Assembly: GCF_004010195.1 (NCBI RefSeq)
Contig: NC_057728.1
Span: forward strand, 43,894,569-43,958,568
Length of the DNA: 64,000 nucleotides
Direction of reading: 5' to 3'
Source of the DNA: Chiloscyllium plagiosum
Lineage: Eukaryota
Shown here: positions 1 to 33,815 of the stretch, in pieces
How the letters are laid out: each line of letters starts with the position of its first letter
Position numbering within the stretch: position 1 is the stretch's first letter
Notes under the pieces: generated by a model
Database searches by the model: none
What the model saw: only the letters and a program-made list of their open reading frames with translations
Told to the model about the DNA's origin: nothing
Position numbers and translations under genes: made by a program

Positions 1-281
1 CCTGAGATCTTCTTCCCGACCTCTCCGCCCCCACCCCAGTCTGACCTATCACCCTCACCTTGACCTCTTTCCACCTATCACATTTCCAACGCTCCTCCCC
101 CAAGTCCCTCCTCCCTACCTTTTATCTTAGCCTGCTGGACAAACTTTCCCCATTCCTGAAGAAGGGCTTATGCCCGAAACGTCGATTCTCCTGTTCCCTG
201 GATGCTGCCTGACCTGCTGCGCTTTTCCAGCAACACATTTCCAGCTCTGATCTCCAGCATCTGCAGACCTCACTTTCTCCT
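1..281 (+). mobile_element. Penelope-like element (PLE) 3' pseudo-LTR with minimal hammerhead motif
   Basis: Close reverse-complement match to 36472-36720, which is attached to a GIY-YIG C-terminal remnant (RRLEEERLIF). Contains CTGAAGA-A-GGGC-TTAT-GCCC-GAAACGTC at 156-183. Confidence 0.8.
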
Positions 282-1788
282 CAATGTTTTCTATTGATGC
301 CCTACAGTGGTTGTAGGAAGTTATGACACATAAGGTCCATCTTCTTTCAACAGGTCTTTAATGATCTAACCAGCAATCCTAAAGGGCAATCTAGGAAATG
401 CTCACAAAATGGCCACACAATTGTTTTCAAAGCTACGTCTTTGGGAGTCTGTCCTGAGTAGATGTGTTCCTGCTGGGTTCGCAAAAGTGATTAACACTAG
501 CTTGGGTGAAGCATCCTTGGAATTGCTACTTCCATCTAGTTGTCTCCTGCAGGTTTTAAGCCGGCCTACTTGGTGTGAGAGTAGCTGAAAAATCATCAGG
601 CCTCTATTGGTGAGCTGAATAAAGAACATAATGCATTGTTTCCTTTCAAATGAGTTTCATGGATGAGCCTGTCAAAATGTTGCATCATACAATAAAATAA
701 CAGAGAGACAAAAAGCTGGAGAATAGGCAGAAAAGATCATGGGACCAGCTAACGAGATTTCAATATATGCAGAAAATGATTGTAAAAACAAGAAAAATAC
801 TACATTTGTACAAGTATATATTAGGATACAGACAAGAGTATGATTGTAGCTGTCAACACCTTAGGATATTAGAACCATGGAGAAGGTACAACAAAACCCA
901 TTTGAACATTGAGGAATAAGAGTTTACAGTTACAAAGAAGAGCTTGAAATATTGCTTTTTTTTCACTGAGACAGACAGGTAATTGGGTGATCTAACAAAG
1001 ACTTTCAAAATTATGAAAGATTTTGTCAGGAAAAGTTGCTAAAGGTTATTTCTGCTGGTTACAAGAAATGCAGAGTGCAATCTTCCAATCCTTAAGGTGA
1101 TGGGAAAGCAACTTAAATGGCGGAATGGTGGTGGATCCGAACTTCACCACCTCTCACCTCAATTGGGACTAAATTTTAGTGGGAAGCTCTTTGTTTAAAT
1201 TTCCTGCACTGCCTCCAACTGAGGTTCAAAGTGGTCAATTAATGAGCACTTAAGTGACTGTTTCCACTGATCAAAATAGTTAGGGTGAGAGAGACAGGGA
1301 ATGATTGTTGACAGCTAAAGCGCTGCCCTTGCTTCCAACCCCATGGTCCTCCCTTTGCCCGTGAGATCCAGCCACAATAACACTCACCTGTACATGGTCA
1401 GTCATCAATTCCAGGAGGCCAGGCAGATGTTTTACCAGTGGCTACCATAGTGCTGCCGAGTGCTGGAGCTGCTGGCCTCGACTTGAATGGCAGATTTTGG
1501 TTGGTGCTATTCCTTCACTTGGGGTCACCAAGATCTGGTAGAAATTACACTGGCCACTCATTAGATGCCTGAACGTGGAACAGGCTTTCTAATCCTAATA
1601 GGGAATGAGGTTCTTTCCACTAACCTTTCCCAGTTTCAGACAATCAGAAAATTGAAGGATGCCGGCCATAGTTCCAAAATCATCAGTAGGAGAAAAGTTA
1701 GTACAGATTGCTCTCATAAGGTCATTACAACTAATGGATACAGATGGAGAGAATATATTTTTAAAGGAAATTGGTCAAGTATTTGAAA

Positions 1789-2014
1789 AGCTGAAAATGT
1801 GTTGCTGGAAAAGCGCAGTAGGTCAGGCAGCATCCAAGGAGCAGGAGAATCAACGTTTCAGGCATGAGCCCTTCTTCAGGAATCATTCCTGAAGAAGGGC
1901 TCATGCCCGAAACGTCGATTCTCCTGCTCCTTGGATGCTGCCTGATCTGCTGCGCTTTTCCAGCAACACATTTTCAGCTCTGATCTCCAGCATCTGCAGT
2001 CCTCACTTTCTCCC
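1789..2014 (+). mobile_element. Fold-back PLE pseudo-LTR insertion with TSD
   Basis: About 95-bp inverted arms centred near 1884 plus a ~35-nt tail. Flanked by direct repeat CAAGTATTTGAAAAG at 1776-1790 and 2015-2029. Confidence 0.85.
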
Positions 2015-2120
2015 CAAGTATTTGAAAAGGCAAAACAAAGTAGGTGTGATTAAATGATAAGAAAATGGTGAAAGGAACATAGATAGCAGTTCAATAAATC
2101 CATATGAGCCAAATACTTTC

Positions 2121-2335
2121 CCACTATGCAATAATTTCACCCACTATGCAGTAATTTCTCCCACAATGCAGTAATTTCTCCCACAATGCAGTAATTTCTC
2201 CCACAATGCGGTAATTTCTCCCACAATGCGGTAATTTCTCAATGCGGTAATTTCTCCCACAATGCGGTAATTTCTCCCACACTGAAGTAATTTCTCCCAC
2301 AATGCAGTAATTTCTCCCACTATGCGGTAATTTCT
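2121..2335. repeat. 20-bp minisatellite, ~11 copies (CCACAATGCAGTAATTTCTC)
   Basis: Directly visible tandem array; one 16-nt truncated unit at 2241. Confidence 0.95.
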
Positions 2336-2349
2336 ATGATTCTACTCAC

Positions 2350-2439
2350 AATGCAGTTTGTAACCGCTTTGGATTGCTTGAACTTGTAGCCGCTCATAAA
2401 AATAAAACACATATAGGCACAGAGAGCCTTAGAATCCAC
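2350..2439 (-). CDS. Tandem-CH-like protein, coding exon 8 (VDSKALCAYMCFIFMSGYKFKQSKAVTNCI); gene continues
   Basis: Poly-T..GAAG acceptor, GTGAGT donor, 90 nt, phase 0/0, open frame; resembles the C-terminal helix of a CH domain. Confidence 0.85.
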
Positions 2440-2537
2440 CTTCATAAAAAAAAAATTTAAAAACATTACATGACAGTAAAAGGAAATGTAGCTTTATTTT
2501 CTGTTTTTCTTTTCCCTTACAATTTTCATATTGTTAC

Positions 2538-2619
2538 CTCAAGCAGATCTTGTGATGTAAAAGAGGTCGATGTACAAATCAATTCTTCCATTGTTTTTAA
2601 AGCAAGATTTGTTATCCAT
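2538..2619 (-). CDS. Tandem-CH-like protein, coding exon 7 (WITNLALKTMEELICTSTSFTSQDLLE)
   Basis: TTTTATAG acceptor, GTAACA donor, 82 nt, phase 2/0 matching both neighbours. Confidence 0.85.
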
Positions 2620-2703
2620 CTATAAAATCAATCACATTCAAAAATAAAATAAGAGCAGAGAGAAATAAGAAGCCATGCTATAATTTATAGTGAGGAGCCT
2701 GAC

Positions 2704-2831
2704 CTGTCACATGGTAGCATTTCCACAATGAACGTGCCAGGCATGAAGGAGTTTACCAGATAGCACCAGACATGACTATCTATCAAGTCACTTAAATCTT
2801 TCACGAGGAGTTTGTGGCCTTCTGATGCAAT
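2704..2831 (-). CDS. Tandem-CH-like protein, coding exon 6 (IASEGHKLLVKDLSDLIDSHVWCYLVNSFMPGTFIVEMLPCD)
   Basis: TTTACACAG acceptor, GTCAGG donor, 128 nt, phase 0/2. Part of ORF 2685..2867; CH-like VKDLSDLIDS..C.LVN..P pattern. Confidence 0.85.
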
Positions 2832-3409
2832 CTGTGTAAATGATAGAAAAAAGGGCGTGAATTTCAATAGATTGAAATTAATTTGATAATTATTATATTA
2901 TGGAGAAGGAACTGATAACCACTTTGGGTCAGAACCCAGTGGCATTGAATGTGAACAGCATCTATGAGTATTGAGGGGGAACAGGGACTAGGAACTTTGA
3001 GGAGGGCAACAGTTTAGCAGCACTGAACAAGAGCAAAGATTTACATCAGGCAATATTTTTTGTTTTGGCCTCCTTCAACTCTTTGGCCACACAAAGATCA
3101 AAACTAAAACTTTCTTGAGCTGTTTCCTTTGACTTAGCTCAAACCGTTGAATAACAAATAATATTTTTTCATGAAAAATACCTTGCTTGGCATCAGCTAA
3201 AATGATGGTAAGATCATGAATCGTCAAAATGAATTTCCATAACAATTTAAAATTTACTTCTGATCAACTTTTCTTTTCATAAACTATCCATTGATATACT
3301 CTCATTCATATTGCAACAGGAATAATATTTTATATTGTTTCAGTTATGGTATTGATACTGCATTCTGTGACTCTACAAAAAATAAGTCTTCTGTGTTGAA
3401 TAAAACCAC

Positions 3410-3516
3410 CTGTAGATGGGCATTAATAAGATCCAGGATGCATTCAACACCGGAAGGGTAGTAATCCCAGCCTTCTTTAGGAATCTTCCTGTTAAAAATT
3501 TTAGCTACCTCACGAC
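3410..3516 (-). CDS. Tandem-CH-like protein, coding exon 5 (REVAKIFNRKIPKEGWDYYPSGVECILDLINAHLQ)
   Basis: TCTCTAAG acceptor, CAG|GTGGTT donor, 107 nt, phase 1/0; ILDLINAHL resembles CH helix A. Confidence 0.8.
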
Positions 3517-4390
3517 CTTAGAGACAGAATACAATAAAAATTAGTTTTTTTTTCACTTTTATCATCACAAGACAACTAACATTTTTGTAAAGAAATAGTA
3601 TGATAACTTTTGAAATGTTGCACTCCTGATTGTTGCCTGAAAACTCAGCAGGTGAAGTTGCTTGTCAAATATTCTATGCTGTTTTCAAGAGAGACTCCAT
3701 AGCCACAGTCTTTTACCTCACTAAACATAATCACCAAAAATAAATTGAAGTTATTCTGGATACAGTTTATCCTTTTCATTGCTCTGAGATAATAGTAAAT
3801 GATATTTCGATATAAAATGTTGCAATAAGGTCCCAAGACTAGTCTAAAGACCTAAATAATGTTTTAAATGCAGTAATTATTCATTTCAATTGTTCATGTT
3901 TTGAAAGTTAACCACAGTAACATTAAACTATAATGACATTTCATAAGTAGGAATTTCTAATGTTTAGGCTAAGATTTGGAGCAAAAATTGTTTTAATTAA
4001 CATGTCTTAACATGCTTTCAAGAAAAACATAATACAACTATACTGCAAAACAATTCTTCCCTCAGAGTTAATCTATTTATATCTATTTATTATAAATTTC
4101 TATTTCTCTCTTCACAGATGCTGCTGAGTTTCTGCAGCACTTCCTGTCTTAATTTCAGATTTTCTGCATCCGCATTATTTTGCATTTATCGGACACTACA
4201 GGAGATTGTTTTCTCTACTGGTGAATCAAAAACAGGAGGGTATAGTTTCAGGGTAAGATAGTGTCTGCCATTTAAGACATATTTTGTCAGAGTTTGTTGT
4301 ATAATCTGAATGTGGAATGCCTCAGGATGCTTTACTGTGTTAATACTTGTATAAATATGAGTATTTAAAAACTAAGATGGTGATAATTAC

Positions 4391-4556
4391 CTGGAAAAGG
4401 TTCAAAATCCTGCAATTGTAATGATTCAATCAGGGAAGAAATAGAAGATTGTTCTGTGGAACCTATTAATGTCTCAAGATCATCAAAAAATGACAGAGGT
4501 GTGCTTGTTTGTTGTATAGAATTCTCCTGGTCTGGTGATCGAACCTTTGGGGTCCA
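4391..4556 (-). CDS. Tandem-CH-like protein, coding exon 4 (WTPKVRSPDQ...QDFEPFP; Ser/Thr-rich linker)
   Basis: TTCAG acceptor, CAG|GTAATT donor, 166 nt, phase 0/1; supplies exactly the phase change needed between its neighbours. Confidence 0.8.
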
Positions 4557-4714
4557 CTGAATTCAAGACATAAAACAATGTTCTTAGCTTGAATTCCTAG
4601 TCCACAATTACCACATACATCAGTCACATAATTACAAGCTATGTGTACTACTTTGCTCTTAACTACATTGTTTCAAAGTTATTTCACTATTGTTTATCCA
4701 CATTGTTTGAAGAT

Positions 4715-5100
4715 GGGAGATGATAGATATATTGGTAATGTCAGTGGACTAGTAATCTCGAGGGCCAGACTAATGCTATGGGGACATAGGTTCAAACATG
4801 GCAGCCAGTGGAAATCAAATGCAATTAATAAATTTGGAATATGCAACTACTTTTGGTTATGAGAATAAATATCACTTTATTTTAACAAAAGGTCCAATTC
4901 ACTTGCATCCTTTTGGGGAGGAATTCTGTCATCCTTCCCTGGTCAGACCTCATGTGATTCTAGAATCACATGCAACATGGCTGACTCTTAACAGCTCTTT
5001 GAGTGGCCTTGTAAACCATTCTGTTCACAGGCAATAAGGGTTGGATAACAGATATTAGCCTTGCTAGCAATGCCTCCCTCCTATAAATGAATAAAGGAAA
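4715..5100 (+). mobile_element. tRNA-headed SINE-like repeat (family also at 27490-27810)
   Basis: Two related copies sharing ggactagtaatc..ggttcaaa head, ccttacctggtc..tgtgactctaga core and an A-rich 3' end. Confidence 0.55.
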
Positions 5101-5444
5101 AATGTATTTCTTAAAATGAGAACAGGATTGGCTTTAATGTGAGTGCTGTTAGCAGTAATATTTTAATAACAAAACTAAATTTCATTTCAAAGAAATCCTT
5201 TTGAAGAATTATAGCAACATTTATATCAAGTAAAGTCAAGAATAATGTTGCAACGTTCCGTTTAAAATCAATCATATAAGGATTCTGTCAGTTACAATCT
5301 CAAACTACATTATCCCAATTTAAAAGATCCAATAAAAGGAATAAATTAAACATTCCAGAAACAAATTGATTATATCCCTTTTCTATTATAGCAATATGGT
5401 GAATGCTGTGAAAACATAGAGAACGTAAATAGTAACCCTCATAC

Positions 5445-5555
5445 CATGAAGCAAACAGAGCAGACCAGTTTATCATTGTCAAGCTGGAGTTGGCTGGATC
5501 GTTCCCAGGTGAATTGAATATCATGCACTATTAACCTCCACAGTAGTTCCTTTAT
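5445..5555 (-). CDS. Tandem-CH-like protein, coding exon 3 (IKELLWRLIVHDIQFTWERSSQLQLDNDKLVCSVCFM)
   Basis: TACTTTAG acceptor, GTATGA donor, 111 nt, phase 0/0; LLWRLI matches the CH1 C-terminal helix pattern. Confidence 0.85.
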
Positions 5556-5989
5556 CTAAAGTACAAATCAAATGCATTCCTCACAACATAAGTCATCATG
5601 AAATCCAAATATTCATTGCCAAGAATTACTAAATAACACTGTAATCATCTGATGCATTCAAGAAAAATAATTGCACATTGGCTGGCCTTTGCAATTTTAA
5701 TCATGGTAAGACCATTAGCATTCATATCATAATGCCTAGTACCAGCACATGCATAGTTATATACTTAAATCCAAAAACAATTGTAATGAATCCATGGATA
5801 GCCTTGTGGTATCCTGTTTCGTATTTATAAATGACTGAACTGATAAAAAAAACTACCTTTTAAAATGTAATATTAATCCATACTAGTATCTTACCCCAAT
5901 CCCAAAAAACTCTCATGTTGTTTATGAACATCCTGTGTGGGATCCAGTGATGAGAGGAATGAATGTTGAATGTGATGAATGGGGTGCCA

Positions 5990-7140
5990 GTTTTATCCAG
6001 GGTAATGTTAAACTTCTAGAATATTGAAGTGGTCTCATCCAGGGAAGAGAAACGTATTTACAATGCTATCAGGGAGGAAATTTCAGGATTTTGATCCAGC
6101 AGCATTGATAAAACAGTGATATATTAAACGAGTCAAAACCCTGCCTAATAGCATTGTGGGTCAACCCATGACAAGAAGGCAGCTCACATTACTTTCTCAA
6201 GGGCAGCAAAGGATCTTCAATAAATGCTGGGCCCAGCCAATGATGCCCACATCTCATGAATGAATTTAAAAAATTCCAAATCAGGATGGTGTGTGGCTCA
6301 GAGGGAAACTTGCTGGTAGTGGTGTTACCATGTTGTCTTTGTCTTTCAAGATGAGTATTGTTTATGCATTTGGAAGAAACTGTGAGGAACCTTGGTGAAT
6401 TTCCTCAATGCATCTACTAAGTGTCCATGGTGAATGTTTATGGCTGGGATGCCATCAAGTGGACTCCTTTGACCTGAACGGTATCAAGCTTCTTGAGCAT
6501 TGTTAGGCTGCAATCAGCCAGCCAAGTAGGGAGTATTCCATCACCATGTCTTCTAGATGGTAGACAGGCTTTAGCAAATCAGGAGGTGAGTTAATTGCTA
6601 CTGCATTCCTAGTCTTTGATCGGCTGGTGTAGCTGCTGAATTTAGATGGCTAGTCCAAATTGGTTTATTTTCAATGGTAACCCCAGGATGTTGATAGTGG
6701 GGGATTCTGTGATAGTAATGCCATTGAATGTCAAGAGGCAATGGTTAGATTCTCTCTTGTTGGAGATGGTTAGTGTCTGGCACTTGTGTGGCACAAATGT
6801 TCTTTGTCACTTGTTCGCCAAACCAGAATATTGTCCAGGTCTGGCTGCATTTGGACATGGACAGCTTCAGTATTTGATGAGTCATGCTTGGTGCTGAGCA
6901 TTATGCAATTATTAGCAAACATCCTCTTTTATGACTTTATGATGGAGGAAAGATCATTGATGAAGCAGCTGAAGATGTTTGGGTCTAGGAAACAACCCTT
7001 AGGTACTCTGCAAAAATGTCCTGGAGCTGAGATGACTACTCTCCAACAATCGAAACCATCTTCCTTTATGCTAGATGTGACTCAAAATAGTGAAAAGTTT
7101 TGCCCCTGATTCCCGAAGACTCCAATTTTTCTCGGGTTCT
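5990..7140 (-). mobile_element. Decayed LINE (CR1/L2-like RT 3' region)
   Basis: Shares degenerate blocks with 15570-16460 and, in opposite orientation, 40220-40750; many stop codons. Confidence 0.5.
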
Positions 7141-7919
7141 TTGAAATTCTAGTAGTCTCAAAATAAGGTTTAGTGAAAAAGGCTAATGCTCTTGGGCAGA
7201 CAGAAGGTAGTTCCAACAAATGGAACACTGTCTGATGAGAAGTAGTTAGTTATGAATCACAGCAGGTAAGTGGAACTAGTTGTAGTTTTAAGTTACTTCT
7301 GAGAGTTCATTTGATTTGTGACAGATGGACAACATCATAATATACAAGTATCTCAGGGACGATAATTGAAAAAATCATATTCCCTCTGCTTGGAGAGATT
7401 GACTATATAAATGTCAAATAATTTAAATAAATGCCAGTATCCTGCTTCAATTGAAAAATATATCAAATTCATTTAACCATTTTCATCATTTTTATTTCAA
7501 ACTTGAATTATCTGACAGTTCCAACACTGGCTAGTTCTAAATCTTGTCAAGCTAATTGAAGGTCTCTCCTCCACTATAACCACTGGTTAAACTGTTCTTA
7601 ACAATATTTTCTCTTAAAATATAAATAATTAACTGAAATATAGAACCAGTGCCATCTAGCCTGAAACAACAGAGTAAAAATGTGAATTTAATGTAACAGA
7701 ACTTACGAGGTGAACATGATGAACATTTGTAATGTTGGAGAATTGTTCTAAGTGCACAGTACCAACAAAAGAAAAATGATTAAAGATAACGCAGAATAAC
7801 ATAATTGTTTGCTCTGAATTTGATTTCTATTCTATCCAGGTGTACCACTGTCATCAACCTCAGATCAATAATTGTATGTGTGATGCACAGTCAGCACATC
7901 AGAGATACATTGTATTTGT

Positions 7920-8590
7920 AAAGGCTATAATAGTAGAATATTTGGAAATATTATATATCCACATGGAGTCTTGTTGGCTTTGTAAATGGGAAATCATATT
8001 CTTTGAGAAGTTAACAAGCAAGTTAGATAAAAGAGGACAGTAGATGTAACATATTTGGATTTCCAAAAGGCAATCATAAGGTACTTCAGAGGCTACTTTA
8101 TAAGATGAGGCCATGGTGTTAGGGGTCATTGCTTTATCATAGATAGAAGATTGGCTAACTAATAGACGACAGAGAGTTGGGATAAAAGGGGTAATTTCAG
8201 GATGGCAACCTGTAACCAGGGCAACACCACAGGGATCAATGCTATGGCCATAGTTATTTACAACATATACTAATGACTTGGCTGAAGGAAGTGAAGTTAT
8301 TATTGCCAAGTTTGCAGATTGCACAGAAATAGGTGGTAAAGCAAATAGTGAAGATGATACAAAATCTACAGGTAGATATAGAAAAGTTGACTGAGTGGGC
8401 ATAAACTTGGCTGAATGTAATATTGGAAAATGTGGGGTTATGCACTTTCTATGCACTTAGAATGGAAATGCTGAATGTTATTGAAATGGAGAAGGACACA
8501 GAAATCTGCAGCACAGATTAATTTGGGAGTCCTGTGAATGATTTAGAAAAAGCTAGCATTCAAGATCAGCAGGTGATTGGGAAGGTAATT
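7920..8590 (+). mobile_element. Decayed CR1 LINE RT fragment
   Basis: Remnants of DV.YLDFQKA, PQGSMLWP, YTNDL, KFAD.T and KCGVMHF motifs. Confidence 0.8.
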
Positions 8591-8996
8591 GGAGAGTGTA
8601 GAACCAGAAGGTATACTCTGAGAGAAAGGTGCCCAACTAAGACAGCTGATGAGGAATTTCTTCTCTCATGACAGCAATTCTCTACTACAATAACTGAAAA
8701 TATCTCGGTCACCAGGAATAAAGAGAATAAAGGAAGGTATCCAGCCTGGTCAACAACTTGCAGTGAAGTGCTTTTGAACTTCAGCACAAATATATCATCA
8801 GATCGGATGTAATGATTTGCTTGACCAAAATGGAGATGAGCTGCTTGTGAGTCCATGAAATGCAGACCATGTCTACCGATTCAGAATATAGTTCAAAGAA
8901 GACATTTCCTGTTCTGATAGTTCAGGATATTATTGAGAAGAAAGGGTCTAGACTGAAAATTCAGGACACTGCAAGGAAAAAAATATTAGTTTAACA

Positions 8997-9862
8997 ATGA
9001 CGTGCAGGGGTTGGTGTTGGACTGGGGTGGACAAAGTTAAAAATCACACAACACCAGGTTATAGTCCAAAAGGTTTATTTCAGAGCACTGCTCCTTCATC
9101 AGGTGGTTGTGAAGTATAACATCATAAAACACAGAATTTATAGCAAAAGATTACTGTGTCATGAAACTTAAATGATATATTGAACAAACCTGGATTGTTA
9201 AGTCTTTCATCTTTTAGAACGGGTTGCGTTTCGGTTCATTAATATGTAAATTCCAGAGCTTCTTTTAAGTCACCTTCTCAAGATAACTTGAGGTTTTATA
9301 TGCACATCCACAAGCACACACTCACTCACTCTCTCTCTCTCATGCACACATATAAGTCTATGGGTGAATTTGTATTTACAGAATTATATTTGTAGATACA
9401 TTATATTTTGCTCAAAACATGCACAGTCTGCAGGCAGTCAATGCAGGCAGTCAAGCCATGTAATATTTTGTAAATTCCACTTTGAAAATAGAACCAGTGT
9501 GACTCAAGATTGGGATACAGACAGACTCTGACCTCATACCTTTAATGCATTGTCTGAGCTGAGATGTCACCTTTTGTAATAAAACCTTAAATTATCTCGA
9601 GAAGGTGACTTAAAAGAAGTTTTGGGATTTACATATTAATGAAACCAAACTTTCAACCCATTCTAAAAGATGAAAAACTTAACAATCCAAATTTGTTCAA
9701 TATATCATTTCAGTTTCATGACACTGTAATCTTTGATGATAAATTCTGTGTCTTATGATCCTATACTCCACAACCACCTGATGAAGGAGCAACGCTCCAA
9801 AAGCTAGCGCTTCCAAATAAATCTGTTGGACTATAACCTGGTGTTGTGTGATTTTTAACTTA
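8997..9862 (-). mobile_element. Large fold-back PLE-derived element (second pseudo-LTR family)
   Basis: About 270-bp inverted arms (~9035-9300 and ~9575-9862), a ~37-nt tail on one arm, near-TSD TTAGTTT(T)AACA, and degenerate hammerhead cores in both arms. Confidence 0.7.
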
Positions 9863-11628
9863 GTTTTAACAGTGCAGCTGTCTTCTATAAGAGATATTGA
9901 TGAGATTAAAAATCCTCCAGATGATATTGGGGACAACTGCATGAGTTGTCGGAAGGAGTTCCTTTTGAAGGTAATTCAGATCAAAAGCTTGCAGATGGAC
10001 TGAAAGGTCTGTTTCCATGCTGTACAAATCTATGACTCCATATATGAATATGAAGAGTTTAGAGGTATATGGGCCAAATGTTGGCAAATGGGACTAGATT
10101 AATTTAGGATATCTGGTCAGCATGGAGAAGTTAGACCGAAGGGTCTGTTTCCATGCAGTACAGCTCTATGACTTAATTACTCTATAAGGTAAGGAGACAA
10201 CTACAAGGTTTAGCAGGAGCAACATTCTCCAGGAAGGACATTCAAGGGATAAAAGATTCTACCAGTGGAGAAATAATTTACAAAGATCACAGTCAAGATC
10301 CATAATCCTCAGGCCAAATCCTTGTCAGTCCTAACAAGTCTATGGGAACATGTTCTGAGAAGATTTGAAAAACCTTCAGGCAGCCTGAATTTGTGAAGTC
10401 AGAGACTTGGGGGGAAATGGGTTAAATGGGAAGTTTAAGAATAAAGTATGGAAAGAAAGACTGGTTCCTGTTAGCTGCTTGATAACGCTTTTGTTTCAGT
10501 GTTGTGTCAGGCTGTTGAACTCGTTGTTAATTTGTTTTTTAAAAGAGGAACAAGAAGGACTAGTGACAGCATTCTATCCCAAACACAAGCTGCCAGTGGT
10601 AGTAATGAAAACTATGACATGGTGATTAGCAGTGGATTTGTTCCATAAATAGCTCAAGGTAACCAGAGAGGAATAAAAATTCCATTTGACTCTAAAGCAA
10701 AAAATTAACCGCTTTAACAGCATCACCAATATAACAACTAATGCAGCAACACAACATGCAGAATTCATGGACAGAATGGACTGTTATAACTGTTACAATC
10801 ACTGTGTAAGGTGGAGCCATGGAGCAAATTGAAAATACGAATGAGCAATTTCAAGTCTTAAAGCGAATATCGAAAGGTTTGCTGAAGCAACCTTACAACT
10901 TCTAACATCAGTCCATCTAAGAATCTAATTTCTACGACTTTCCATTTAATGAATTCTCCAAACAGCTTCTCACCAAAGCATGAAAAATAGCACCTTTTAA
11001 TAGCAGCTTGAGCTGATTTTATTCTGTTTCCTGTCAGCAAAAGAGTGCTGTTTAAAATCAATTTATGTGCACTGTCCAACTTATGCAATCTAAATGTTAG
11101 CAAAATTCTTAATTTTTGAGGAGAACCTTTGGTGCATTAAACATTAAAGCTAAACTAACTTTTACACTCTAAAACTAAATTGATTGTAATACTGCATGAA
11201 TTGCAACCATATCACAAGAGGTGCAAAGCCAACACAATAATACATGATTACCTTAAGGTGTTGGCACATTGTTTTGAAATCATATCATACAGATCTCTGT
11301 AGTTATGTATCAGATTCCAAATCTAATTTTTCAAATTTATTTGAACACCTGACTACTAATTCTCCAAGAGGGGAGCCAACACTCAATGAATAGAGCTGAT
11401 TCCGTGATCAACCATACCTGTGAGCTCAGCTCTCTGCTCGAAGCACAATTATCCCTCTCAGCCATATACTGACTATTGATTATGATTTCAATCAACCCCA
11501 ATAGCATTGAAAGAAATTATTACATGTTTGCTAGAATTATCAAAATATCAATTCTCAAGTGTTAATGTTATTTAATGCAGTGTCACCCAAGCAACAGAAT
11601 TAAAGTTGGAAGAGATCTTGGTACATAC

Positions 11629-11798
11629 ACGTTTAGTATTTTTCTTGGCAATTATGCCACAATCAATTTTGCTATTCTCTGGTATAATGCCTGCTGTCCG
11701 CAGTTCGACCAATAACAACTCAAACTGTGCAGCAACTTGTCGGCTTGAGTGGCAGCAAGTCATGCTCTGCATATTCTTTGGTGACCGTCCAGTGAAGC
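11629..11798 (-). CDS. Tandem-CH-like protein, coding exon 2 (GFTGRSPKNMQS...IDCGIIAKKNTKR)
   Basis: TTTTATTAG acceptor, GTATGT donor, 170 nt, phase 1/0; overlaps ORF 11572..11772. Confidence 0.85.
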
Positions 11799-12364
11799 CT
11801 AATAAAAAGACAATAACCTTTTTTCAATAACTCTCAATCAACAATTAGCAGAAATAAAACTTATATTTTGGAAAATCAGGGCTCAAAATGTGTCTTTATC
11901 AAAGAAAAATAATTACATAAATTCTGTCAAATTCCTTACTTACGTGATTAAATCAATGTTTACAATAGTTAAATAATGCAAACATTAAATTTTCAATTCA
12001 GGAATATTTGTCATAATATTATTCCTTAAAATCTTCTCAAGAGAAGGTGCAACAATTATTTTTAAGTAAACGTGGGAATTAACAGTAAATTCTGCCTCTT
12101 CGCTTGTTTCTGTCAATAACATTGAATATGCTAATCAATGTTCATAAAAGTACATATGAAGATGTGGCCTATATGGTAGCCACTCAGCAGATTAAAATTG
12201 ATTTAATAATGTTTATGCAACAGCTTTTCAAGAAAAGATATCAAGTCATACTTCATACATTTCATAGAAATATTTACAGTGGCATTAACCCAGTACATCT
12301 ATTATTCCAATTGTCAAATTCTATGGAGACATTTTAAAAAAAAACTTGATTTATTTGAACTTAC

Positions 12365-12494
12365 CTTCTACCAAGGATTTCAAATGAGTATTTGTGAATA
12401 GATCTGTAAATACATTACTGAGTGGTCGATCAAGTGATGAACATCGCACATTTGCCCAGGCTGTGTAACATGTTATTTTTGATTGTTGAGGCAT
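12365..12494 (-). CDS. Tandem-CH-like protein, coding exon 1 (MPQQSKITCYTAWANVRCSSLDRPLSNVFTDLFTNTHLKSLVE)
   Basis: Exon 12540-12365 with TTTACAG acceptor and AG|GTAAGT donor. The ATG is directly preceded by an in-frame TAA. YTAWAN..DL....L..LVE is a CH1 N-terminal signature. Confidence 0.85.
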
Positions 12495-13599
12495 TTAATT
12501 ATATGTTTTCCAAAGTGTTAGTCTGAAATTCCTTCAATATCTGTAAATAAAGAAGTAATTAACTGAAATGTTCAACAATAACTATTCTACTTCTCAATTT
12601 CACTCTTAAAACCAAAACTTGTCTTCTTGGGCAACATGGACAGAATAACCTAATCAATTGCTTGTAGCTATGTTACTAGATACTTTCACTGACACTGGCA
12701 GCTTAGTGGTAAGCATACATGGCAATAAAGATGGTACAGCCTGCTCAGCTCTTTTTTAATGCGGTGATCTTTTACTATTCCCCAGGCCTTGATGTGTTTC
12801 CTAAAAACTACCAATCACAATTCAATACTGTCCTCATTTAACATATAAATCCTCTGCAGGAACATATTGTTCAGGTTACCAGGTGACAATCTAAATTTCC
12901 GAAAACCTCTGAACATGACTTGCACCGGTCATCATAGGAGATTGTTGGATTAAAATACTCAAGCCATCCAGCAGAACTTTCATAGATAGTAAGGAGGATC
13001 ATTTCAGAAAGTCTCTCTCTTCATATACAAATTCCAGACCTGACAAAGAAACAATATCTACTTTATATGAGTTTTTGCTTTCAACCGACCATGTATGCCC
13101 AGGAACCTTACGTTCCCTTCAATCTAGTCTCGAGCTCTATCCTCACCATTTCTCACCTTTTGCTTCTAGTACAAATAGTTTACTTCTTTTCTTTACTGCA
13201 ATACAACAATCCTCTTGTACAATGTGCATGAAGTACCTTGCGGATGTTTACTTATCAACACAAATAATACACAAATATATCAGCACAATAATAAGTACGT
13301 GATCCAGCAATCAAGCCAAAAGACTTGAGTGAAATTTCATGGAGACAAGTATTTACAGAGGTAAAATAAACAAAATGTATAATTCCATCGAGGTTATGAT
13401 GCGATGACCATTATTGAAATATGGCTGCAAGCTAGGCATTATTGGAAGTTAAATATTCCATGTTATAAGGTCTTTAGAAAGAGTATAGAATCAGCTAGAG
13501 GAAGAAGTGAAGTTTTATTCATTGAAGATACGGTTACAAAATTTGTAGCAGACATTATGGATAAGAGAGACCAATTAGCAGTCAGGTTAAAATTATGCA

Positions 13600-14725
13600 T
13601 AGAGTCATAGAGTTATAGAGATATACAGCATGGAAACAGACCCTTCGGTTCAACTCGTCCATGCCAACCAGATATCCCAACCCAATTTAGTCCCACCTGC
13701 CAGCACCCGGCCCATATCCCTCCAAGCACTTCATATTCATATACCCACCCAGATGTCTTTTAAATACTGCAATTGTACCAGCCTCCACCACTTCCCCTGG
13801 CAGCTCATTCCATACATGCATCACCCTCTGCGTGAAAAAGTTGCCCCTTAGGTCCCTTTTATAGCTTTCCCTTCTCACCCTAAACCTATTCCCTCTAGTT
13901 CTGGATTCCCCCACCTAAACCTATTCCCTCTAGTTCTGGATTCCCCCACCCCAGGGAAAAGACTTTGTCTATTTATCCGATCCATGCCTCTTCCGATTTT
14001 ATAAATCTCTATAAAGTCACCCCTCAACCTCCAACTCTTCAGGGAAAACAGCCTTAGCCTATTCAGCCTCATCCTATAGCTCAAATCCTCCAACCCTGGC
14101 AACATTCTTTCAAATCTTTTCTGAACACGTTCAAGTTTCACAACATCGTACCGATAGGAAGACCAGAATTGCATACAATATTCCAAAAGTGGCTGAACCA
14201 ATGTCCTGTACAGCCACAACATGACCTCCCAACTCCTATACTTAATGCTCTGACCAGTAAAGGAAAGCATACTAAACACCTTCTTCACTATCCTATCTAC
14301 CTGCAACTCCACATTCAAGGAGCTATGAACATCCAAGGTCTCTTTGTTCAGCAACACTCCCTAGGACCTTACCATTAAGTGTATAAGTCCTGTTAAGATT
14401 TGCTTTTTCAAAATGCAGCACATTGCATTTATCTAAATTAAACTCCATCTGCCACTCCTCAGTCCATTGGCCCATCTGATCAAGATCACATTGTAATCTG
14501 AAGTAACTTTCTTCGCTGTCCAGTACACCTCCAATTTTGGTGTCATCTGCAAACTTACTAACTATACCTCCTATGTTCACTTCCAAATCATTTATATAAA
14601 TGACGAAAAGCATTGGACCCAGCACTGATCCTTGTGGCACTCCACTGGTCACAGGCTTCCAGTCTGATAAACAACCTTCCACCACCACCCTCTGTTTTCT
14701 ACCTTCGTGCCAGTTCTGTATCCAA
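13600..14725 (-). mobile_element. 5'-truncated CR1 LINE
   Basis: GVPQGSVLGP, YINDL, KFADDTK, LEYC.QFWS, RGNFFTQRV..WN.LP and an octamer-repeat tail. Internal 35-bp tandem duplication at 13879-13948. Confidence 0.95.
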
Positions 14726-15004
14726 GCAAAAAAAGACTTCCATATCAGCAATTCTATAAGCCACAGCTTTGGGGCTTGGGAAGTGGTGGGGGCTCACTTT
14801 GTCCTTTCTGTGTCTGTGTGTGTGTGTGGGTGAAGGGGGCAGGGGATTAAAACAGTAATGTGCGTTATCTACAGGACTTCTAATAATAAAAATGAAGTGG
14901 CAGAAAGTATTAATTCAATGATTAAAGAGGCTTGCACAGGATTTTAATGGGAGATTTTAATTTCCACAAAGTTTGTTTTAAATTACTCATTCATAGGATA
15001 TGGT

Positions 15005-15550
15005 TCAACATTGAGTACTGTGTGCAGTTTTGGTCTCCTAGTCTGATGAAGGACATTCTTGCTCTTGAGGGAGTCCATCGAAGGTTCATGAGACTGATTC
15101 CAAGGATGGCAGGACTGAAATATGAGGAACGACTGGATCGATTGGGCTTCTATTCACTGGAATTTAGAAGAATGAGGAGGGATCTTACAGAAACATATAA
15201 AATCCTGATAGGACTGGACAGGCTAGATGCAGGAAGAATGTTCCTGATTTTGGGGAAGTCCAGAACTAATGGTAACAGTCTAAGAATAAGAGGTAAGTCA
15301 TTCAGAGATGAGGAAGACTTTCTTCCCTCAGACCTGTGAAATTCTGTCCCACAGGAAGATGTTGGAGCCAGTTCAATAGATATATTCAAGGGGGAGCCGG
15401 ACAGGTTCCTTGCAGCTAAAGGGATCAAGGGGTAGTGGGCGAAGGTGGGAATGGGATACTGGGATTGCATGATCAGCCAAGATCATACAGAATGGTGGTA
15501 CAGGCTTGAAGGGCTAAATGGCCTACTCCTGCATCCATTTTCTATGTTTC
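15005..15550 (+). mobile_element. CR1 LINE 3' end
   Basis: EYCVQFWSP..LEGVHRRF..YEERLDRLG.YSLEFRRMRRDL plus 3' UTR. Confidence 0.9.
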
Positions 15551-17079
15551 ATTAACGTCAACATGTATTTCAGACTGTAACTGCTCCTTGAGAAGATGGT
15601 GCAGTGCCATCTTTCTAAACGGTTCCAATCTCACAATGAAGTATTCTCCCAATGCTGTTCGGAATTTGACACAGCAAAGATGTGGGAATTGTGATATAGT
15701 TCGGGGTCATTAGTGTATGATTTGGAGTTGTTACCTTGTTTACCTCGTTCTGTCTAAGCAGTCTGTGATCTGTATTTCCTTGTTTACTATGATCTACCTG
15801 CATTGCTCGCAAAACAACATTTTCACAGTACTTAGGTAAATGTGACTACATCAAAACAAATCAAAATCAAAATCAAACATGCTTACTACTCTGTTCTTCT
15901 AGTTGGGAGAGACCATGGGTTGGAAGTTGTTGTAGAAAAAGTCTTGACAAGTTGCTAGACTACATCTTGTAAATGGTGCACACTGCAGCTATGGTGTTCC
16001 AATGATAGGGGATTGAGTGTTGATGATTTTGAATAGATGCCAATCAAATCAAATCAGCTTTTTGGGTCTGGATGGTATCATATTCTGACATTGCTTCTAA
16101 GACACACTAATCCAGGCCCGTGGAGAATGTTTCATCACACTCCGACTTGTGTCTTTTAGCTAGTGAAAAGGCTTTCAAGATTCAGGAGCTGGTTCATTTG
16201 ATAATGAATATCCAACATCTGATCTGCTCTTGTAGCCACACTACATGGTTGGTCCAGTTATATTTTTGGTCAATATTGAGCCCCAGAACATGCATGCTGG
16301 GAAACTCAGTGATATCAATGCTATTGAATGTCAAAAGACTGTGATTAGACTTGCTCTTTTCCGAGATGGTCATTGTTGGGCACTTTTGCGGCATTAATTC
16401 CACTTGCCACTATTCAGCCAAAGTCTGAATGTATTTCAAGTCTCACCGAATGTGATGCAGATTATTTCCTTAAGACCATAAGATATAGGAACAGAATTAG
16501 GACATGTGGCCCAGCAAGTCTGCTCCACCATTTGATCACATTCTCCTGCCTCCTCCCTGTAAGTCTTGATCCCCTTACTCATGGCTCCTCCATTCTCACC
16601 CTTTTGAACCTGCATAGATAACCTGCAAATAATCCTAAAACACCTAGGTCCCTTTGTGCTTCAGACTTTCCCATTTTTTCCCATTTAGTAAGTAGTCTAC
16701 ACTTCTATTCTTCAGACCAAAGTGCCTAACCTCAACACCTTCGCACATTGTATTCCATCTGCCATTTCTCTTAGCTTGTCTAAGTCCTTCCACTGTCTCC
16801 ATGCTTTCTCAACATTACCTGAACCTCCTTTGTCATCTGCAAACTTAGCAACAATACACTCAGTTCCTTTGTCCAGATTATTAATGTATAGCGGAATAGT
16901 TTCATTATATGAGGAGTTGTAATTGGAACTGAACACTCAAGTTGTCAGTAAGTATTCCTATTTCTAACCTTACTGAACATGGGTGCATAGATTGTTGGTG
17001 AAAAGGTGTAACCTTTTACTACAGACAACATCTTACATCATTTTGCTGATGACATAGTTGACTCATGGTATGTTTTTTT

Positions 17080-17420
17080 ATAGAAACCCTACAGTGTGGA
17101 AACAGGCCCTTTGGTCCAACAAGTCCACACCGATCCTTCAAAGAGTATCCCAAACAAACCTATTCCCCATTACTCTACATTTACTCCTGACTAATACACC
17201 TAACCTACCTATCCCTGAACACTATGGGCAATTTAACATGGCCAATTCACCTAATCTGTACACTTTTGGATTGTAGGAGGAAACCAGAGCACCCTGAGGA
17301 AACTCATGCAGACACAGGGAGAATGTGCAAATTCCACACAGACAGTCGCCCAAGGCTAGAATTGAACCCAGGTCCCTGGCGCTGTGAGGTGGCAGTGCTA
17401 ACACCATGCTGCTGTGCCAC
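17080..17420 (-). mobile_element. HE1-type V-SINE
   Basis: Same sequence as copies at 28892-29235 and 59765-60088: tRNA-like head, V-domain core, CR1-like tail. Confidence 0.85.
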
Positions 17421-17804
17421 TCTCCTATACTCAAAACACTGACCAATAAAGGAAACCATACCAAACACCTTCTTCATTAACCTATCTACCTGTGACTCTA
17501 CTTTCAAGGAACTATGAACCTACACTCCAAGGTCTCTTTGTTCAGCAACACTCCCTAGGACCTTATCATTAAGTGTATAAGTCCTGCTATGATTTGCTTT
17601 TCCAAAATACAGCACCTCACATTTATCTGTCGATTGCCTATATTAGATAATTCTGATCAGGAATTTTCAAATCAGCAGTGTTTTGGGAAGTTCTGATTAT
17701 TGAATGACAGACTTTCTTACTGTAAGACTGAAATTAAACTTTGAAACCTGGGCTAGCTTCTTCCTGATTGATTGAGGTTTTGGGGGATGGGTGTAGGTGC
17801 CTCT

Positions 17805-19070
17805 CACTTCACATCTCTACCTATCGCATTCTCAGCTATCTTCCACCCAACCTCACCCCTCTCCCATTTATTTGTCAGCCCCCAGCCCACAAGTCTATTC
17901 CTGATGAAGGGCTTATGCATGAAACGTTGATTGTCCTGCTCCTCGGATGCTGCCTGACCTGCTGAGCTTTTCCAGTGCCACACTCTCAACTCTGATCTCC
18001 AGCATCTGCAGTCCTCACTTTCTCCTAGTTGATTTCAACCCTATTGCGAAGTCTCTTCCAAGGATGCCTACCTTGAAAAAGTTCTCCTCTTCCCTCTACA
18101 ACGATCTGAGTGTCTCTCTCACTGCACCCTCCAGATCATCTCCTCTGCCCCCAAGCTCTTAGCCACGTCCTGAAGCAGACTCGCTACCACAGCCACATCG
18201 CTTCCTCAGTGCCTGCCTACAGAACCAACTGATCCCACATGGACTCGGGACTACATTCAAACCAACAGAATTTGGACCTGAACAGGACAACCAGTACGTA
18301 CTACAAATCCGAAACCTTCAGCAACGATTCTCTTTCTGGCTCCTCTGCTCCACACAAGCACCTCCACATACATCAAATCATCCTCCCCCACTTCCACCAC
18401 CTACAAACAGACCTCACTACCAGATATATTTTTCCCATCCCACCTTTATCAATGTTCTGGAGAGACCATTCCCTGTGACTCCCTTGTCAGATTTATGCCC
18501 CTCCCGACCCCACACCCCACTCCCGGCACCTTCCCATGCCATCGCAGGAAATGCAAAACCTGCGCCTACACCTCCCCCCTCACCTCTGTCCAATGCCCCA
18601 AAGGATCCTTCCACATCTGATAGAAATTTACCTGTACCTCCACCAATGTCATCTGCTGTATCCGTTGCACCCGATGTGGTCTCCTCTATACTGGGGAGAC
18701 AGGACACCAACTTGCGAATCATCTCTGGGACACCAGCACCCACCAACCTGACGCCACATGGCTGAACACTTCAACTATTTCACCAGTTTCCTCATTTCCC
18801 CTCCCAGTCCCAAGCTTCCAACTCAGCACAACCTTCCTGACCTATCCAACACCTTTCCCATCTACCCAATCCACCCTCCTTTCTGACCTAACACCTTCTC
18901 CCGCTCATTCATCTACCTGTGGTATTCTCAGCTACCTCATCCCCCAACCCCACCCCCTTCCATTTAACTCTCTGCTGCCCACCATATTTTTGATAAATAA
19001 GTCCCGACGTCGATTCTCCTACTCCTCGGACGCTGCCTGACCTGCTGTGCTTTTCCAGCTCCACATTGTG
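17805..19070 (+). mobile_element. Internally deleted Neptune-type PLE with two pseudo-LTRs and GIY-YIG remnant
   Basis: 18531-18716 translates to FPCHRRKCKTC...F.CTSTNVICCIRCTRCGLLYTGETG (Cys linker plus GIY-YIG, with stops). No RT core seen; related pseudo-LTR at both ends. Confidence 0.85.
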
Positions 19071-19308
19071 GTCTCTCACTAACACCTGATGTAGGAGCAG
19101 CGCGTCCAAAGCTAGTGTTTTCAAATAAATATTGGACTATAATGTAGTGTCGTGCGACTTTTGACCTTGTTCAGCCTACTACCTAGCAATTCAGAATGAC
19201 GGATTCCTATGTTCCCTATTCTTTCTCTTAACTGTCATTCATCGTTAAAAATACGCACTTCAAATTTCTCTTCAATCTTTAATAACCAACTGAAAGGACA
19301 GTGCCTAC

Positions 19309-19880
19309 CGGACGCTGACGTCCTCAGGAGAAAAATCCTGACTTTCGCCGCTGAGTCGTGCACCTTTTTACAGAGAAGACAACATTCGGGGCCTCCCGGC
19401 AACCGAGGGAATCCCGCCCTTGCGATTGGTGAACATCGCTGTGATTTTTCGCGTCAGAGAGTTGCAGCATTGTTTACAGTTTCTATGACTCCAAACGAAC
19501 CCGCTGCCTTAACTCGCGGTTTTCGAGACATTTCGCTCCAATCAACTCTTACACGGGGTGTCAACATCACCCTGTATCGATCAAACGGCTACGGCCCCAT
19601 TGTTTTAATTACACACCCATTCATGGTCGTTGTCATAGCTTTTGCATTAATCCAAGGGGAAAACAAAACTTGTGTTCTGGCAGCGGTCATTTCAGCCCTT
19701 ATTGTAAGATCTGGAAAGGCTCGAGTGATATCTTGAACTGTCAAAAATCCAACGACTTCGTTTAGAACCGTAGAATGGTTACAGCACAGAGGAGGTCATT
19801 CGGCATGTTTCTTTGCAAAAGCAACTCAGCTGTTGCCAGTCGCCCTTTTCGGTAGCCCCGCGTTTTTCGTTTTGGTTTGC
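19309..19880 (-). promoter_or_regulatory. CpG-rich promoter and probable non-coding first exon of the CH-like gene
   Basis: Local CpG enrichment in a CpG-poor background; donor CCG|GTAGGC at 19309/19308; CCAAT, forkhead-like TGTTTAC (19471) and RFX-like half-sites. Confidence 0.55.
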
Positions 19881-22800
19881 AGTGTCACCGGGTATACGCG
19901 ATTCAGAGTTGTCACAAAAGTTAAAGATTTTAAAACACTAAAACCCACAAACTAGGTTTCTGTCTAAAACAGTAATCACTGATTATTGCAGGTAATTTAA
20001 TTCTACCTACAGTAAATAATTAAGCTCAATTAAGTAAACTCTAATCCCTTTATCAACTATTCCTTATACAGACAAACAGGGAAATACATGGGTGTGGTGA
20101 AAACCAAAAAATAATGGTCGTATACTCTTTTGTTCACAAGATCAGGATTGATCTTCCTGATACAAAAGTTTCTCCTCAACCTTACAACCTCAACAGTGCA
20201 AATGCTTCCACTGTTTTGCAAGAGGCACAGGGTGGCAGTTTCACTTATAAAAAGTCTCTGAATCCTCCAACTCAGTCACAACTTGCAGCATCTGCTGAAG
20301 GAAAGATGAGCTAGTTTTCCTCAGCTTTAAGTGTCTGCTGGAGATCTGATGGGTTCCTTTCGGGTGTCACTCAATATCTTGCTCCACAGACCAATCACCT
20401 TATTACTGGCAGACAGAGGACCTGGTCATTGATAATTGGTTCCATTTACCACAAATTAATCATCTTCACTTGTAAGCAAACCCTTGACTCTGGTTCATCT
20501 GCACATTGTTGGAATCTACAGTTACAGTGTTCACAACAGGTACAAAATTATTTATTTTCAAAACATGCAGCCATCCTTGTGGCTTTCAAATAGTTATTTC
20601 TCATTTCAAATATTAAAAAGCAGAAAAAAAATCATAATGAATCTGGCTCTACTGCACTCTCAAAGTGTATTCCACATTCCTAATTAGTGCTTTCAAAAAA
20701 AAAACTTATGTGGCTTTTGATTCTTTTGTACCATTCACCTTAATCTGTGCTTTTTTGTTCTTATCCTTTCCACCAATGGAAAGCTTTTCCCACATCTGAT
20801 CTAGACAGTTAGCCAAACCCTGCATGGTTCTTAGTAACTTCATTATATCTTCTTTCAAAGTGCAGACATTTAGCCCTAAATTACTGCAGAAGGTAAGCAT
20901 TTGGTCCATCCAGATCATGCTAGCTCTCTGTTGCCCCTGCTTTAGCTTTTGTTTCTCTCAAGTACCCACCCACTTCCCTTTTGAAATGTTTGCTTTCATC
21001 ATTTTCAGAGGTAGCGAGTTCCTGTATCTGACATAGAGTGAAAGTCTTACAGCATGGACATAGACCCTTCAGTCCAACTTGTTCATGCCAATCAGGTTTC
21101 CCAAACTAAACTAATCCCACCTCTCAGCATTTGACCCATATCCCTCTACATATTTGTTCAAATGTCTTTTAAATGTTGAAACTGTACCTGCAATTACATT
21201 TTCAGGATATCATTACGTGCAAGGTTTGTAGCTCAGGTTGAGGTTTCGTTATGTGTCACATAGCAGTTGGATTGCATGATGAAATCTATTGTCAGTTTAC
21301 AGTCAAACATGATAGCTAGTTGTTCAAAAGAGCTGAGATAAATAACAAATCTTTTGTGAATGTTTTGAGATAGATGTTGGTCTGCAAACAGGCTGGATCC
21401 ACACATAATTGTGGTTCATCTTTGATGAATGTATGAAACTTTTTACATCATCTTAAACAGACAGGACTTTGTTTTAAGGCCTCAAGTGAATTGAGGCAGA
21501 ATGGTGCATTTCCTCAATAAAAAGAAAACCAATAGGAATTGAGCAAACAAATCTACCTCAAAGATATGCCATACCACTGAACAAAGACCCATCAAAATCC
21601 TTTGTTAAAGTTATCTTTTGACATGCAGCATTTTTATGAATGATCAGAAAACTATTTGTTGCATTCTTTCATAATATTTTGCTGTGTTCAAATTGGTGGT
21701 TGCACTTTCTCACAATCACTGCACTTTTGACATATTCTGGAACATGCTGATGTTGTGAAAAGTCCGATGAGAAATACAAGTCCTTTATTTCAAGAAACTA
21801 TTTTAATATCTTGTAGCAGCAATGCATATGCTCTGTTGGAATTGAATACCAAAATGTTAGAAGTCTAATGTCATAACTAGTGTACATTTTTTTTGTATCA
21901 GCAACGTTTAAACCCACTACACTGAAGAACATTTATTGCACAGCCTCTTTCTAGTTTTCTGTATTTTTAATTTCAAAGATTAAATCACATTGTTTACTCT
22001 ACAAATGATTGGAGACAGGATGTACCTTGGAAGATGAGCTAGAGGCCCCTCAGAAATGCTTTTTTGTTTGATTAGCATTGGAAATAGCACTTCCAATCCT
22101 GGAGGTCACCATGTTAAGATTACATGCTTTCCATTGGGTTTTTTAAAAACAGGACATATTCTGTCTCATTGTATAGATTTCAACATCTTTGCTATCTTTA
22201 ATACTTCAGACTTCATAAAATTAAACACAATTATGGATTTTATATAATCAGTAGATAAGGCTAAATAAACATAACAAAAATAAGCTAAAGTACAATCAGA
22301 GAACCAGGAAATGAATTATACTAATTTTGTCTATATTGTGCTTGAAACTAAAGATGCAAAGGATCTTAGCAATGATTTAGGCATTTTCTGAAGATATAAC
22401 TCAAATCTTTTAAAATAAAGCTTCCCCTGCAAGAACTGCCAGCAATGCACACCAACCATTTGGCAACTGGAAAACTGAGTAGCACTGTACAAACAAGTTA
22501 ATTTTGGAAGTTTAAATCCTTTTCCAGTGAACGCAAACTCAGCACAAAACTGGCAGTGACCAGTTTTCTCTCTCTCTCAGAAGATAAAAATACCTGATAT
22601 AAGAAATCAAAATATCAAAAGCTCTAATGAATTTGGCATTTTTGAATACATTGAGAAATAAAGTAAATTATTTTATATCTTAAACACAAACATACTGAAA
22701 AGGTTTTGTGATAATATATAGAAAATGAGAATCCCAGCATAATCATTGGTATTTATACTCACAAACAAAATATTACAAATCAAATAATGCCTGTCATTCT

Positions 22801-24578: not shown

Positions 24579-24749
24579 TTATTTTATGCCTTGATTCTCC
24601 TGTATTTTTTTAAGCAGGTATTCCATCTGTAGATTCAGGTTTGGCTGTCCTTTTCTTGTTTTTTTGCTGAGTATTCTGTACCTCTCTAGTTTATCTTCCT
24701 TGTATTTTCTCTGCGCCTCTTCCTTTTCTCGTTGACGTTTTTCAGCTGC
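24579..24749 (-). CDS. CCDC59: CCDC59 (TAP26) exon 4, terminal
   Basis: [56 protein letters not shown], the conserved [20 protein letters not shown] end; AG acceptor, phase 0. Confidence 0.95.
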
Positions 24750-24789
24750 CTTTATGAGAAAATTACAAAGTTACCAATTAGATCTCAAG

Positions 24790-25160
24790 TAGAGTCATAG
24801 TCATACAGTCAGACAGCATGCATGCATACAGATTCTTCGGTCCAACTAGTCCACGATGAACATAAGCTCAAACTAAACTAGTCCCACCTACCTACTCCTG
24901 GCCCATATCCCTCCAAATCTTTCCTTTCTTTCCTATCATGTACTTATCCAAATGCCTTTTAAATGGTGCAATTGTACCCATATTCACCACTTGCTCAGGA
25001 AACATCCACACGCAAACCACCCTCGGGAAAGAATTTGCCCCATATGTCTTTTTTTAAATCTCTCCTCTCTCACCTTAGAAATGGGCCACCTAGTCTTGAA
25101 ATTCCCCATCCTAGGGAAAAGACGACTACCATTAACTCTATCTACACCCCTCATTATAGT
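24790..25160 (-). mobile_element. CR1 3' end
   Basis: MRGVDRVNGSRLFPRMG and a CR1 3' UTR/tail as in 13600-13990. Confidence 0.85.
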
Positions 25161-26435
25161 CTGCAGTGGGATTAAGAGATTTATGACAATCCTTTGCAAG
25201 AACTCTCTGGCAAAACATATAGTACATCAGTATAATTCAGAGTCTCAAAAGCAGTTGTTGGAGGCTGTTGTTCTTCTTAAATTCTTTTTTATGGGATGTG
25301 TGCTCCACTGGGAAAGTTTACATTTATTGCCCATTGATGGTGAGTTGTATTCCTGAACTACTGCAATCCACATGATGTGGTTATGCCCACAGTGCTATGC
25401 AGGAGGGAGCTCCAGCTTAGTTGTTGATTGAAAGGATTCCATAGATGCTTCAAAGTTGGGAGAGAGCAGTATGTTTAAACAGATAGCAGATGTTGGCTAC
25501 TAATGAGGTCAGCACCTGGGAACTGGTTCCAGCAAGTCTGGGAGAAAATCTTTGCTCCAGCAGAGGCAGATGTTGAATAGTAACTGGGATCTCATGAGGA
25601 GACAGTTAGTTTGTCAGGAAGAGGCCAGAGTTTTGAACTGGGTTTGAACTAGTTCTGGGTGAAGGATATTGATGCAGCAGTGTGAAGATCTGAAAGGTCT
25701 CTGCCTATCTGCCTGTTATGAGCTATTGGAAGTTTAGAGAAAAGAAAGTAAGTTATAAGTATTAATGACTTCCTTTGAATGAGTTGAAAAAGTTACCTTG
25801 ATCCACAATTTCAGAAAATCAACCAAGAGATAATCATATATGGCTGTGGAACAACACATCATGAAAACCACTTAAGTACCTGGCCAGATTTGTTATTTTC
25901 TTTTATTTATCCCTTAACTGTAGTTTGTCTGGCTTTTGTTCAAGTTACAAATTAGCATTGAGAATTTGAGATTCCCCAGAGTCTGGGATTGATTATTCAA
26001 AAAAAAAGTCTGGTTAGCAACCTTTTTGATCAATTTTGAGGGTCTATGAATGTTTTAATTTCACTGTGTCCTGAATGCAGAGGGAGAAAGGCTGATTTCG
26101 TTGGCTGTATCCTTGTCATAACATGACCATATTCATTATGGTACTGTTGATTTGAATTCTTACAAGAAGAATATTTGATATATTAATTCAGAACCATAAG
26201 TACATATATGAGTACCAGCAAAAACACTTAATTCAAAATATTCACATTTTCTTTCTAGTTATCATAAAACTATTTCAATAAATGATTGCTGGTTATGTCA
26301 ATGAAATATGTATTAATCCTACACTTCAAAATCCTGGGGTATTCTTGCTTTTCTAAAACCATGATTAGAAATGTAATCTAAATGATAGTTCATAGAATCA
26401 CAGGTCAGATCCAGGAAACACTGTATGACACTTAC

Positions 26436-29235: not shown

Positions 29236-29290
29236 TCTTTCTTTTCACATTAATTTCACAACTTTGGTGTTCTTTTAAAAAAAAACATAC

Positions 29291-33712: not shown

Positions 33713-33815
33713 GTTCGGGGATTTTTTTTCCCTGAAGTGAAGAGTGAAACGGGCGGATCTCGTGCCTTTGAACCGGCGCTGCGGCCACAAAAGAAAACGC
33801 AAAGGGAGTCCTCAC

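Follow-up and report, generated by a model that had tools for sequence, protein, structure and literature searches.

The gene at the locus

The stretch analysed here (the window) comprises 64,000 nt of Chiloscyllium plagiosum contig NC_057728.1 (forward-strand positions 43,894,569-43,958,568). On its minus strand lie eight exons that cover the N-terminal third of a protein of 1044 residues, in which a tandem calponin-homology (CH) actin-binding domain (ABD) is predicted to be followed by a helical hairpin, a beta-rich domain that matches no known family, and ankyrin repeats. An earlier note on this DNA had proposed the eight exons, with AG/GT ends, matching phases and a stop-free frame of 328 aa, and all of this was reproduced: 8/8 exons lie at the coordinates below, the seven internal acceptors are AG and the eight donors GT, the phases are consistent, and the 984 nt of spliced exons translate into 328 aa with no stop. 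When random segments of the window were joined at equal lengths, 0 of 20,000 chains were stop-free.

12365..12540, minus strand: exon 1, first coding; 5′ untranslated region 12540-12495, ATG at 12494; CH1 helix A, residues 1-43
11629..11798, minus strand: coding exon 2; CH1, residues 44-100
5445..5555, minus strand: coding exon 3; final helix of CH1, including Trp106 and His111; the linker begins
4391..4556, minus strand: coding exon 4; variable linker between CH1 and CH2
3410..3516, minus strand: coding exon 5; end of the linker and first helix of CH2
2704..2831, minus strand: coding exon 6; CH2
2538..2619, minus strand: coding exon 7; CH2
2350..2439, minus strand: coding exon 8; last helix of CH2, leading into the helical hairpin

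The predicted splice junctions, which the note had proposed checking against transcripts, are present in contigs of three sequencing runs (X1, X2 and X3) that we took as RNA by guess. A single 1888-nt contig of X2 holds all eight exons in succession; canonical intron ends are listed for five of its joints, of which X1 shows three and X3 two, and the two upstream joints were deduced from contiguous record coordinates. The exon 1 piece (12364-12541) is present in X1 and X2, and about 97 letters at the upstream end of the spliced contigs match nothing in window positions 1-13500. Given that the introns are removed exactly, these contigs are transcripts, and given that they differ from the window by a few letters per exon, their source is probably a close relative. 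Two single-cell runs, X8 and X9, yielded no reads over these exons and speak neither for nor against the junctions.

With exon 2 as the sole query we retrieved the RefSeq protein XP_043564823.1 ('uncharacterized protein LOC122559439', C. plagiosum, 1003 aa), whose residues 1-328 are the window frame. The gene, which had been called unannotated, is therefore already covered by a model, although the entry carries no name, function or CH annotation. The exons expected to the left of the window were found in two places.

G000:C19, 43869565 down to the stop at 43779814, minus strand: 17 exons beyond the left edge of the window, with AG/GT ends throughout, which rebuild XP_043564823.1 to its stop
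G000:C28106:515-641, plus strand: exon 9, on an unplaced 1248-nt contig, with canonical ends and correct phases

XP_043564823.1 is without 41 residues found in the other homologues of our first alignment, and the X2 contig continues from exon 8 into precisely this segment. A gap of 6032 N adjoins window position 1 on its left, and the unplaced contig likely belongs in it. With exon 9 the frame runs to 1044 aa, identical to Chiloscyllium punctatum P0016 at 1017 of 1044 positions, while without it a stop falls at codon 330; the RefSeq model apparently spans the gap by using a donor moved by four bases. Since exon 9 lies on this unplaced contig, the model is 41 residues short.

The gene thus has 26 exons, all intact, and the two thirds of the protein encoded outside the window include the beta-rich domain and the ankyrin repeats. 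A pseudogene or chance frame is ruled out by the spliced contigs, the intact exons and the conserved family described below. Paralogue expansion is likewise ruled out: all seven genome matches to the N-terminal 301 aa fall at this locus, which makes the N-terminal part single-copy.

Immediately past the exon 8 donor lies a short tandem repeat of about 20 nt (window 2110-2345), and the introns and intergenic DNA hold many decayed long interspersed element reverse-transcriptase fragments and short interspersed element copies (window 13700-16900, 35200-37700, 53250-54770).

Predicted domain architecture

Pfam matched none of the eight exons taken individually. In a PDB sequence search, CH1 proved akin to utrophin, dystrophin and filamin; a family scan found Pfam CH on the second domain, and the N-terminal CH1 is of the actinin type. 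The predicted model of a homologue superposes over the whole ABD of actin-type tandem CH proteins, with CH2 packed on CH1 and with 16-20% identity in the structural alignments to spectrin-superfamily ABDs. The tandem of actinin-type CH1 and CH2 read from the window thus agrees with both the PDB matches and the superposition. Atlas features of residues 1-330 also cluster with CH domains (0.88), a lead only. The linker between CH1 and CH2 is variable and about 95 residues long, and the 583-residue N-terminal unit is predicted as a single rigid body (predicted template modelling score, pTM, 0.91); the two CH domains are modelled as closed within this unit despite the long linker.

Some 720 residues follow CH2, beginning with about 90 that are helical in the model. 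The ankyrin repeats are clear (Pfam Ank_2, E 1e-47; eight Ank stretches). Only ankyrin proteins came back when the full-length shark model was compared by fold, and likewise when the Chromosphaera protein was compared by sequence with the PDB. The middle domain gave one PDB match (E 1.3), no Pfam family in more than one of 19 members (single-member hints at E 0.09-0.18) and no usable Atlas match. A ubiquitin-like or LysM assignment is unsupported by the weak hhalign probabilities of 0.3% and 0.2%, obtained against small own-genome sets (14 ubiquitin-like rows, two of them probably mis-framed, and one 34-aa LysM sequence). These blank searches do not prove the fold of the middle domain to be new, and the domain is seen only within the larger model.

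Family range and neighbouring genes

An acoel homologue searched against 1.84 billion representatives gave 131 matches, of which 20 were looked up and 14 had a taxon: Chromosphaera, Pigoraptor, choanoflagellate UC4, Ephydatia, Rhopilema, Didymodactylos, Macrostomum, three echinoderms, Lampetra, Acipenser, Lepisosteus and Geotrypetes. Further members occur in sharks, skate, Latimeria, Phallusia, Convolutriloba, bivalves, frogs and axolotl. A recent shark novelty is therefore ruled out, and the suggestion of a gene retained in cartilaginous fishes gives way to a holozoan-wide family with members also in sturgeon, gar, coelacanth and amphibians. In a quick maximum-likelihood tree of 26 rows the order is broadly that of the species, with three unicellular rows on long, unsure branches, and the family appears to be single-copy and vertically inherited from a holozoan ancestor.

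A query with the N-terminal half of the caecilian protein gave no amniote, teleost, insect or nematode among the 13 of 18 matches with a taxon (word-indexed search, 7998 candidates scored), and, from the sequences at hand, mammals, flies, worms and the bony model fishes appear to lack the family. Losses in ecdysozoans, teleosts and amniotes are likely but not proven, because among 125 matches outside the named set 16 have a vertebrate best match, and four of these (P0054, P0059, P0068 and P0071, 55-68% identity) could not be placed in a taxon.

Database models split or misname several orthologues (P0007, P0015/P0017, P0168/P0169), and pieces of the family are labelled 'filamin-A-like' (basking shark, 140 aa) or 'PP6 regulatory ankyrin repeat subunit-like' (lamprey, axolotl).

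Upstream of the gene is one matching PF08524 (match at window 24597-24746), which bears out the earlier placement of our gene beside what we take to be CCDC59. The surrounding features are as follows.

24597-33970 of the window, minus strand: CCDC59-type gene with the PF08524 match, head-to-head with the METTL25-type gene
from about 34210, plus strand: gene presumed to be METTL25, with PF13679 methyltransferase matches just right of the window
L017:4300-4640, minus strand: first coding exon of a liprin-alpha, on the same strand as the CH-ankyrin gene and about 30 kb beyond its stop
19151..19850, minus strand: CpG island that may hold the promoter and a first exon without coding sequence

We take the liprin-alpha exon to be that of PPFIA2, although a PDB search with it gave no match, and a Pfam scan of four neighbour-gene frames gave none over the cut-off. 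The human order is PPFIA2-CCDC59-METTL25, with no such gene known in between. Observed/expected CpG is 1.11 and 0.94 in the two bins of the island and at most 0.63 in the other 23 bins of 12501-21250; the island, which has the last CCDC59-type exon only about 5 kb away, ends by a minus-strand GT donor at about 19180 and may supply the promoter and a non-coding first exon.

Possible functions and relation to known systems

In spectrin-family ABDs, CH1 binds actin after CH2 opens, assisted by an N-terminal flank (passages of PMC8810934, PMC5676748 and PMC6938246). We consider it about an even chance that the protein is an adaptor that holds partners bound to its ankyrin repeats on actin filaments, that is, a regulated actin tether with an ankyrin docking arm. 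Because the flank is absent, CH1 would bind F-actin weakly, and only once CH2 moves aside; the choice of a membrane or signalling partner would fall to the ankyrin stack, and the actin end and the ankyrin end would be linked through the hairpin and the beta-rich domain.

Several points weigh against this adaptor. Pfam CH fell below the cut-off in all five shark proteins scanned. The confident model belongs to a homologue of 36% identity, and the shark's own, built from 10 sequences, reached a predicted local distance difference test score of only 71 and a pTM of 0.47. In 24 of 30 rows Met1 stands 12 residues ahead of the first Trp of CH1, which leaves no room for the N-terminal actin-binding flank expected of a spectrin-superfamily ABD. 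Only 9 of 31 rows have Val at the equivalent of filamin A V122, which together with L104 we take to be an actin contact; this shark has Ser there. While the Trp equivalent to filamin A W142 is kept in 30 of 31 rows, with a His five residues further in 23 of 31, in the closed form W142 also lies hidden in the interface of CH1 with CH2, and its conservation is thus no proof of actin contact. The family start corresponds, by inferred numbering, to utrophin minus residues 1-27, and in the passages concerned removal of the flank weakens utrophin binding (dissociation constant 31 μM vs 13.8 μM; PMC6938246) and abolishes that of beta-III-spectrin (PMC5676748).

The long linker could offset this loss of the flank, since in utrophin an unstructured linker increased affinity (PMC6938246). 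The latch is poorly kept as well: only 10 of 30 rows have K or R at the CH2 position that we presume to match the alpha-actinin-4 K255 lysine.

It is possible, though rather unlikely, that the long linker and the hairpin instead lock the tandem CH unit in its closed state and that this unit has given up actin binding, offering a docking surface like a parvin CH domain in a pure scaffold. The missing flank, the variable V122 position and the single rigid N-terminal body would fit such a protein, as would the near-invariant, family-specific polar residues of CH1 and CH2 (R17, Q64, E75, D112, D270 and R271), which could form another binding site. The poorly kept latch lysine, on the equivalence assumed above, speaks against it. 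So do two published observations: isolated ABDs that bind actin crystallise closed too, so that a closed model is uninformative (PMC5676748), and filamin B, with a short flank, still binds actin (PMC6938246).

Dimerisation through the hairpin, with cross-linking of filaments as in alpha-actinin or cortexillin, has little to recommend it: residues 324-345 and 361-375 do show a hydrophobic heptad-like pattern, and the alignment to a MACF1 N-terminal fragment extends beyond the ABD (287 of 334 residues, root-mean-square deviation 4.7), but the modelled helices fold back within one chain with high confidence, a scan of 21 proteins gave no Pfam spectrin repeat, and conservation is lowest in the hairpin (mean identity 0.24). 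Equally improbable is a cilium, flagellum or basal-body protein with its CH domains on microtubules, retained where cells are flagellated or the outer surface is ciliated and lost in other lineages, for while the named members are from flagellated unicellular holozoans and animals whose larvae or epidermis are ciliated, with no named match in ecdysozoans, teleosts or amniotes, sequence and fold are those of an actin-type tandem CH, unlike the single CH of microtubule binders, and teleosts and amniotes retain motile cilia.

A broader form of the adaptor reading, to which we give rather low credence, is that of an undescribed, pre-animal branch of the spectrin superfamily combining an ABD, a new fold and an ankyrin stack in one chain as a single-molecule, spectrin-ankyrin-like link between membrane proteins and actin. 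This branch would have dropped out separately in ecdysozoans, teleosts and amniotes, and its absence from human, mouse, zebrafish, fly and worm would explain why it was overlooked.

A literature search gave no description of the family and no paper for six of its LOC ids (supplements, which lay outside the search, may list the ids), and the family is not mentioned in the ankyrin and CH passages of PMC9145010. The gene is already catalogued, but the family itself seems undescribed, in line with the RefSeq label and the earlier 'uncharacterised', and the novelty lies in recognising the family and not the gene. The inventory of tandem-CH proteins was compiled from human, fly, worm and Dictyostelium; the present architecture, an ABD with ankyrin repeats and an unmatched domain, was found in no paper, and the family would enlarge the ancestral animal cytoskeleton toolkit by one member. 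It offers a natural test of how a flankless ABD with a very long linker is regulated, for which axolotl, frogs, sea urchin, Macrostomum and tunicate are available study organisms.

Compared with alpha-actinin, utrophin/dystrophin, filamin, plectin and MACF1, the present family is without the N-terminal flank, has a linker of about 95 residues and, in place of a detected spectrin, Ig or plakin rod, carries the ankyrin stack and the unmatched beta-rich domain. Parvins stop after CH2 and have no ankyrin repeats, whereas this protein is more than two CH domains; the structural match to them spans one CH domain at 7% identity, ranked below the ABDs, and none is among the 51 PDB matches. Ankyrin repeats are coupled to F-actin by ankyrin via spectrin and by espin within one chain, the actin module of espin not being a CH domain. 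The ankyrin matches of the present family are generic; unlike the ankyrin-spectrin skeleton and espin, it joins tandem CH domains and ankyrin repeats in one chain.
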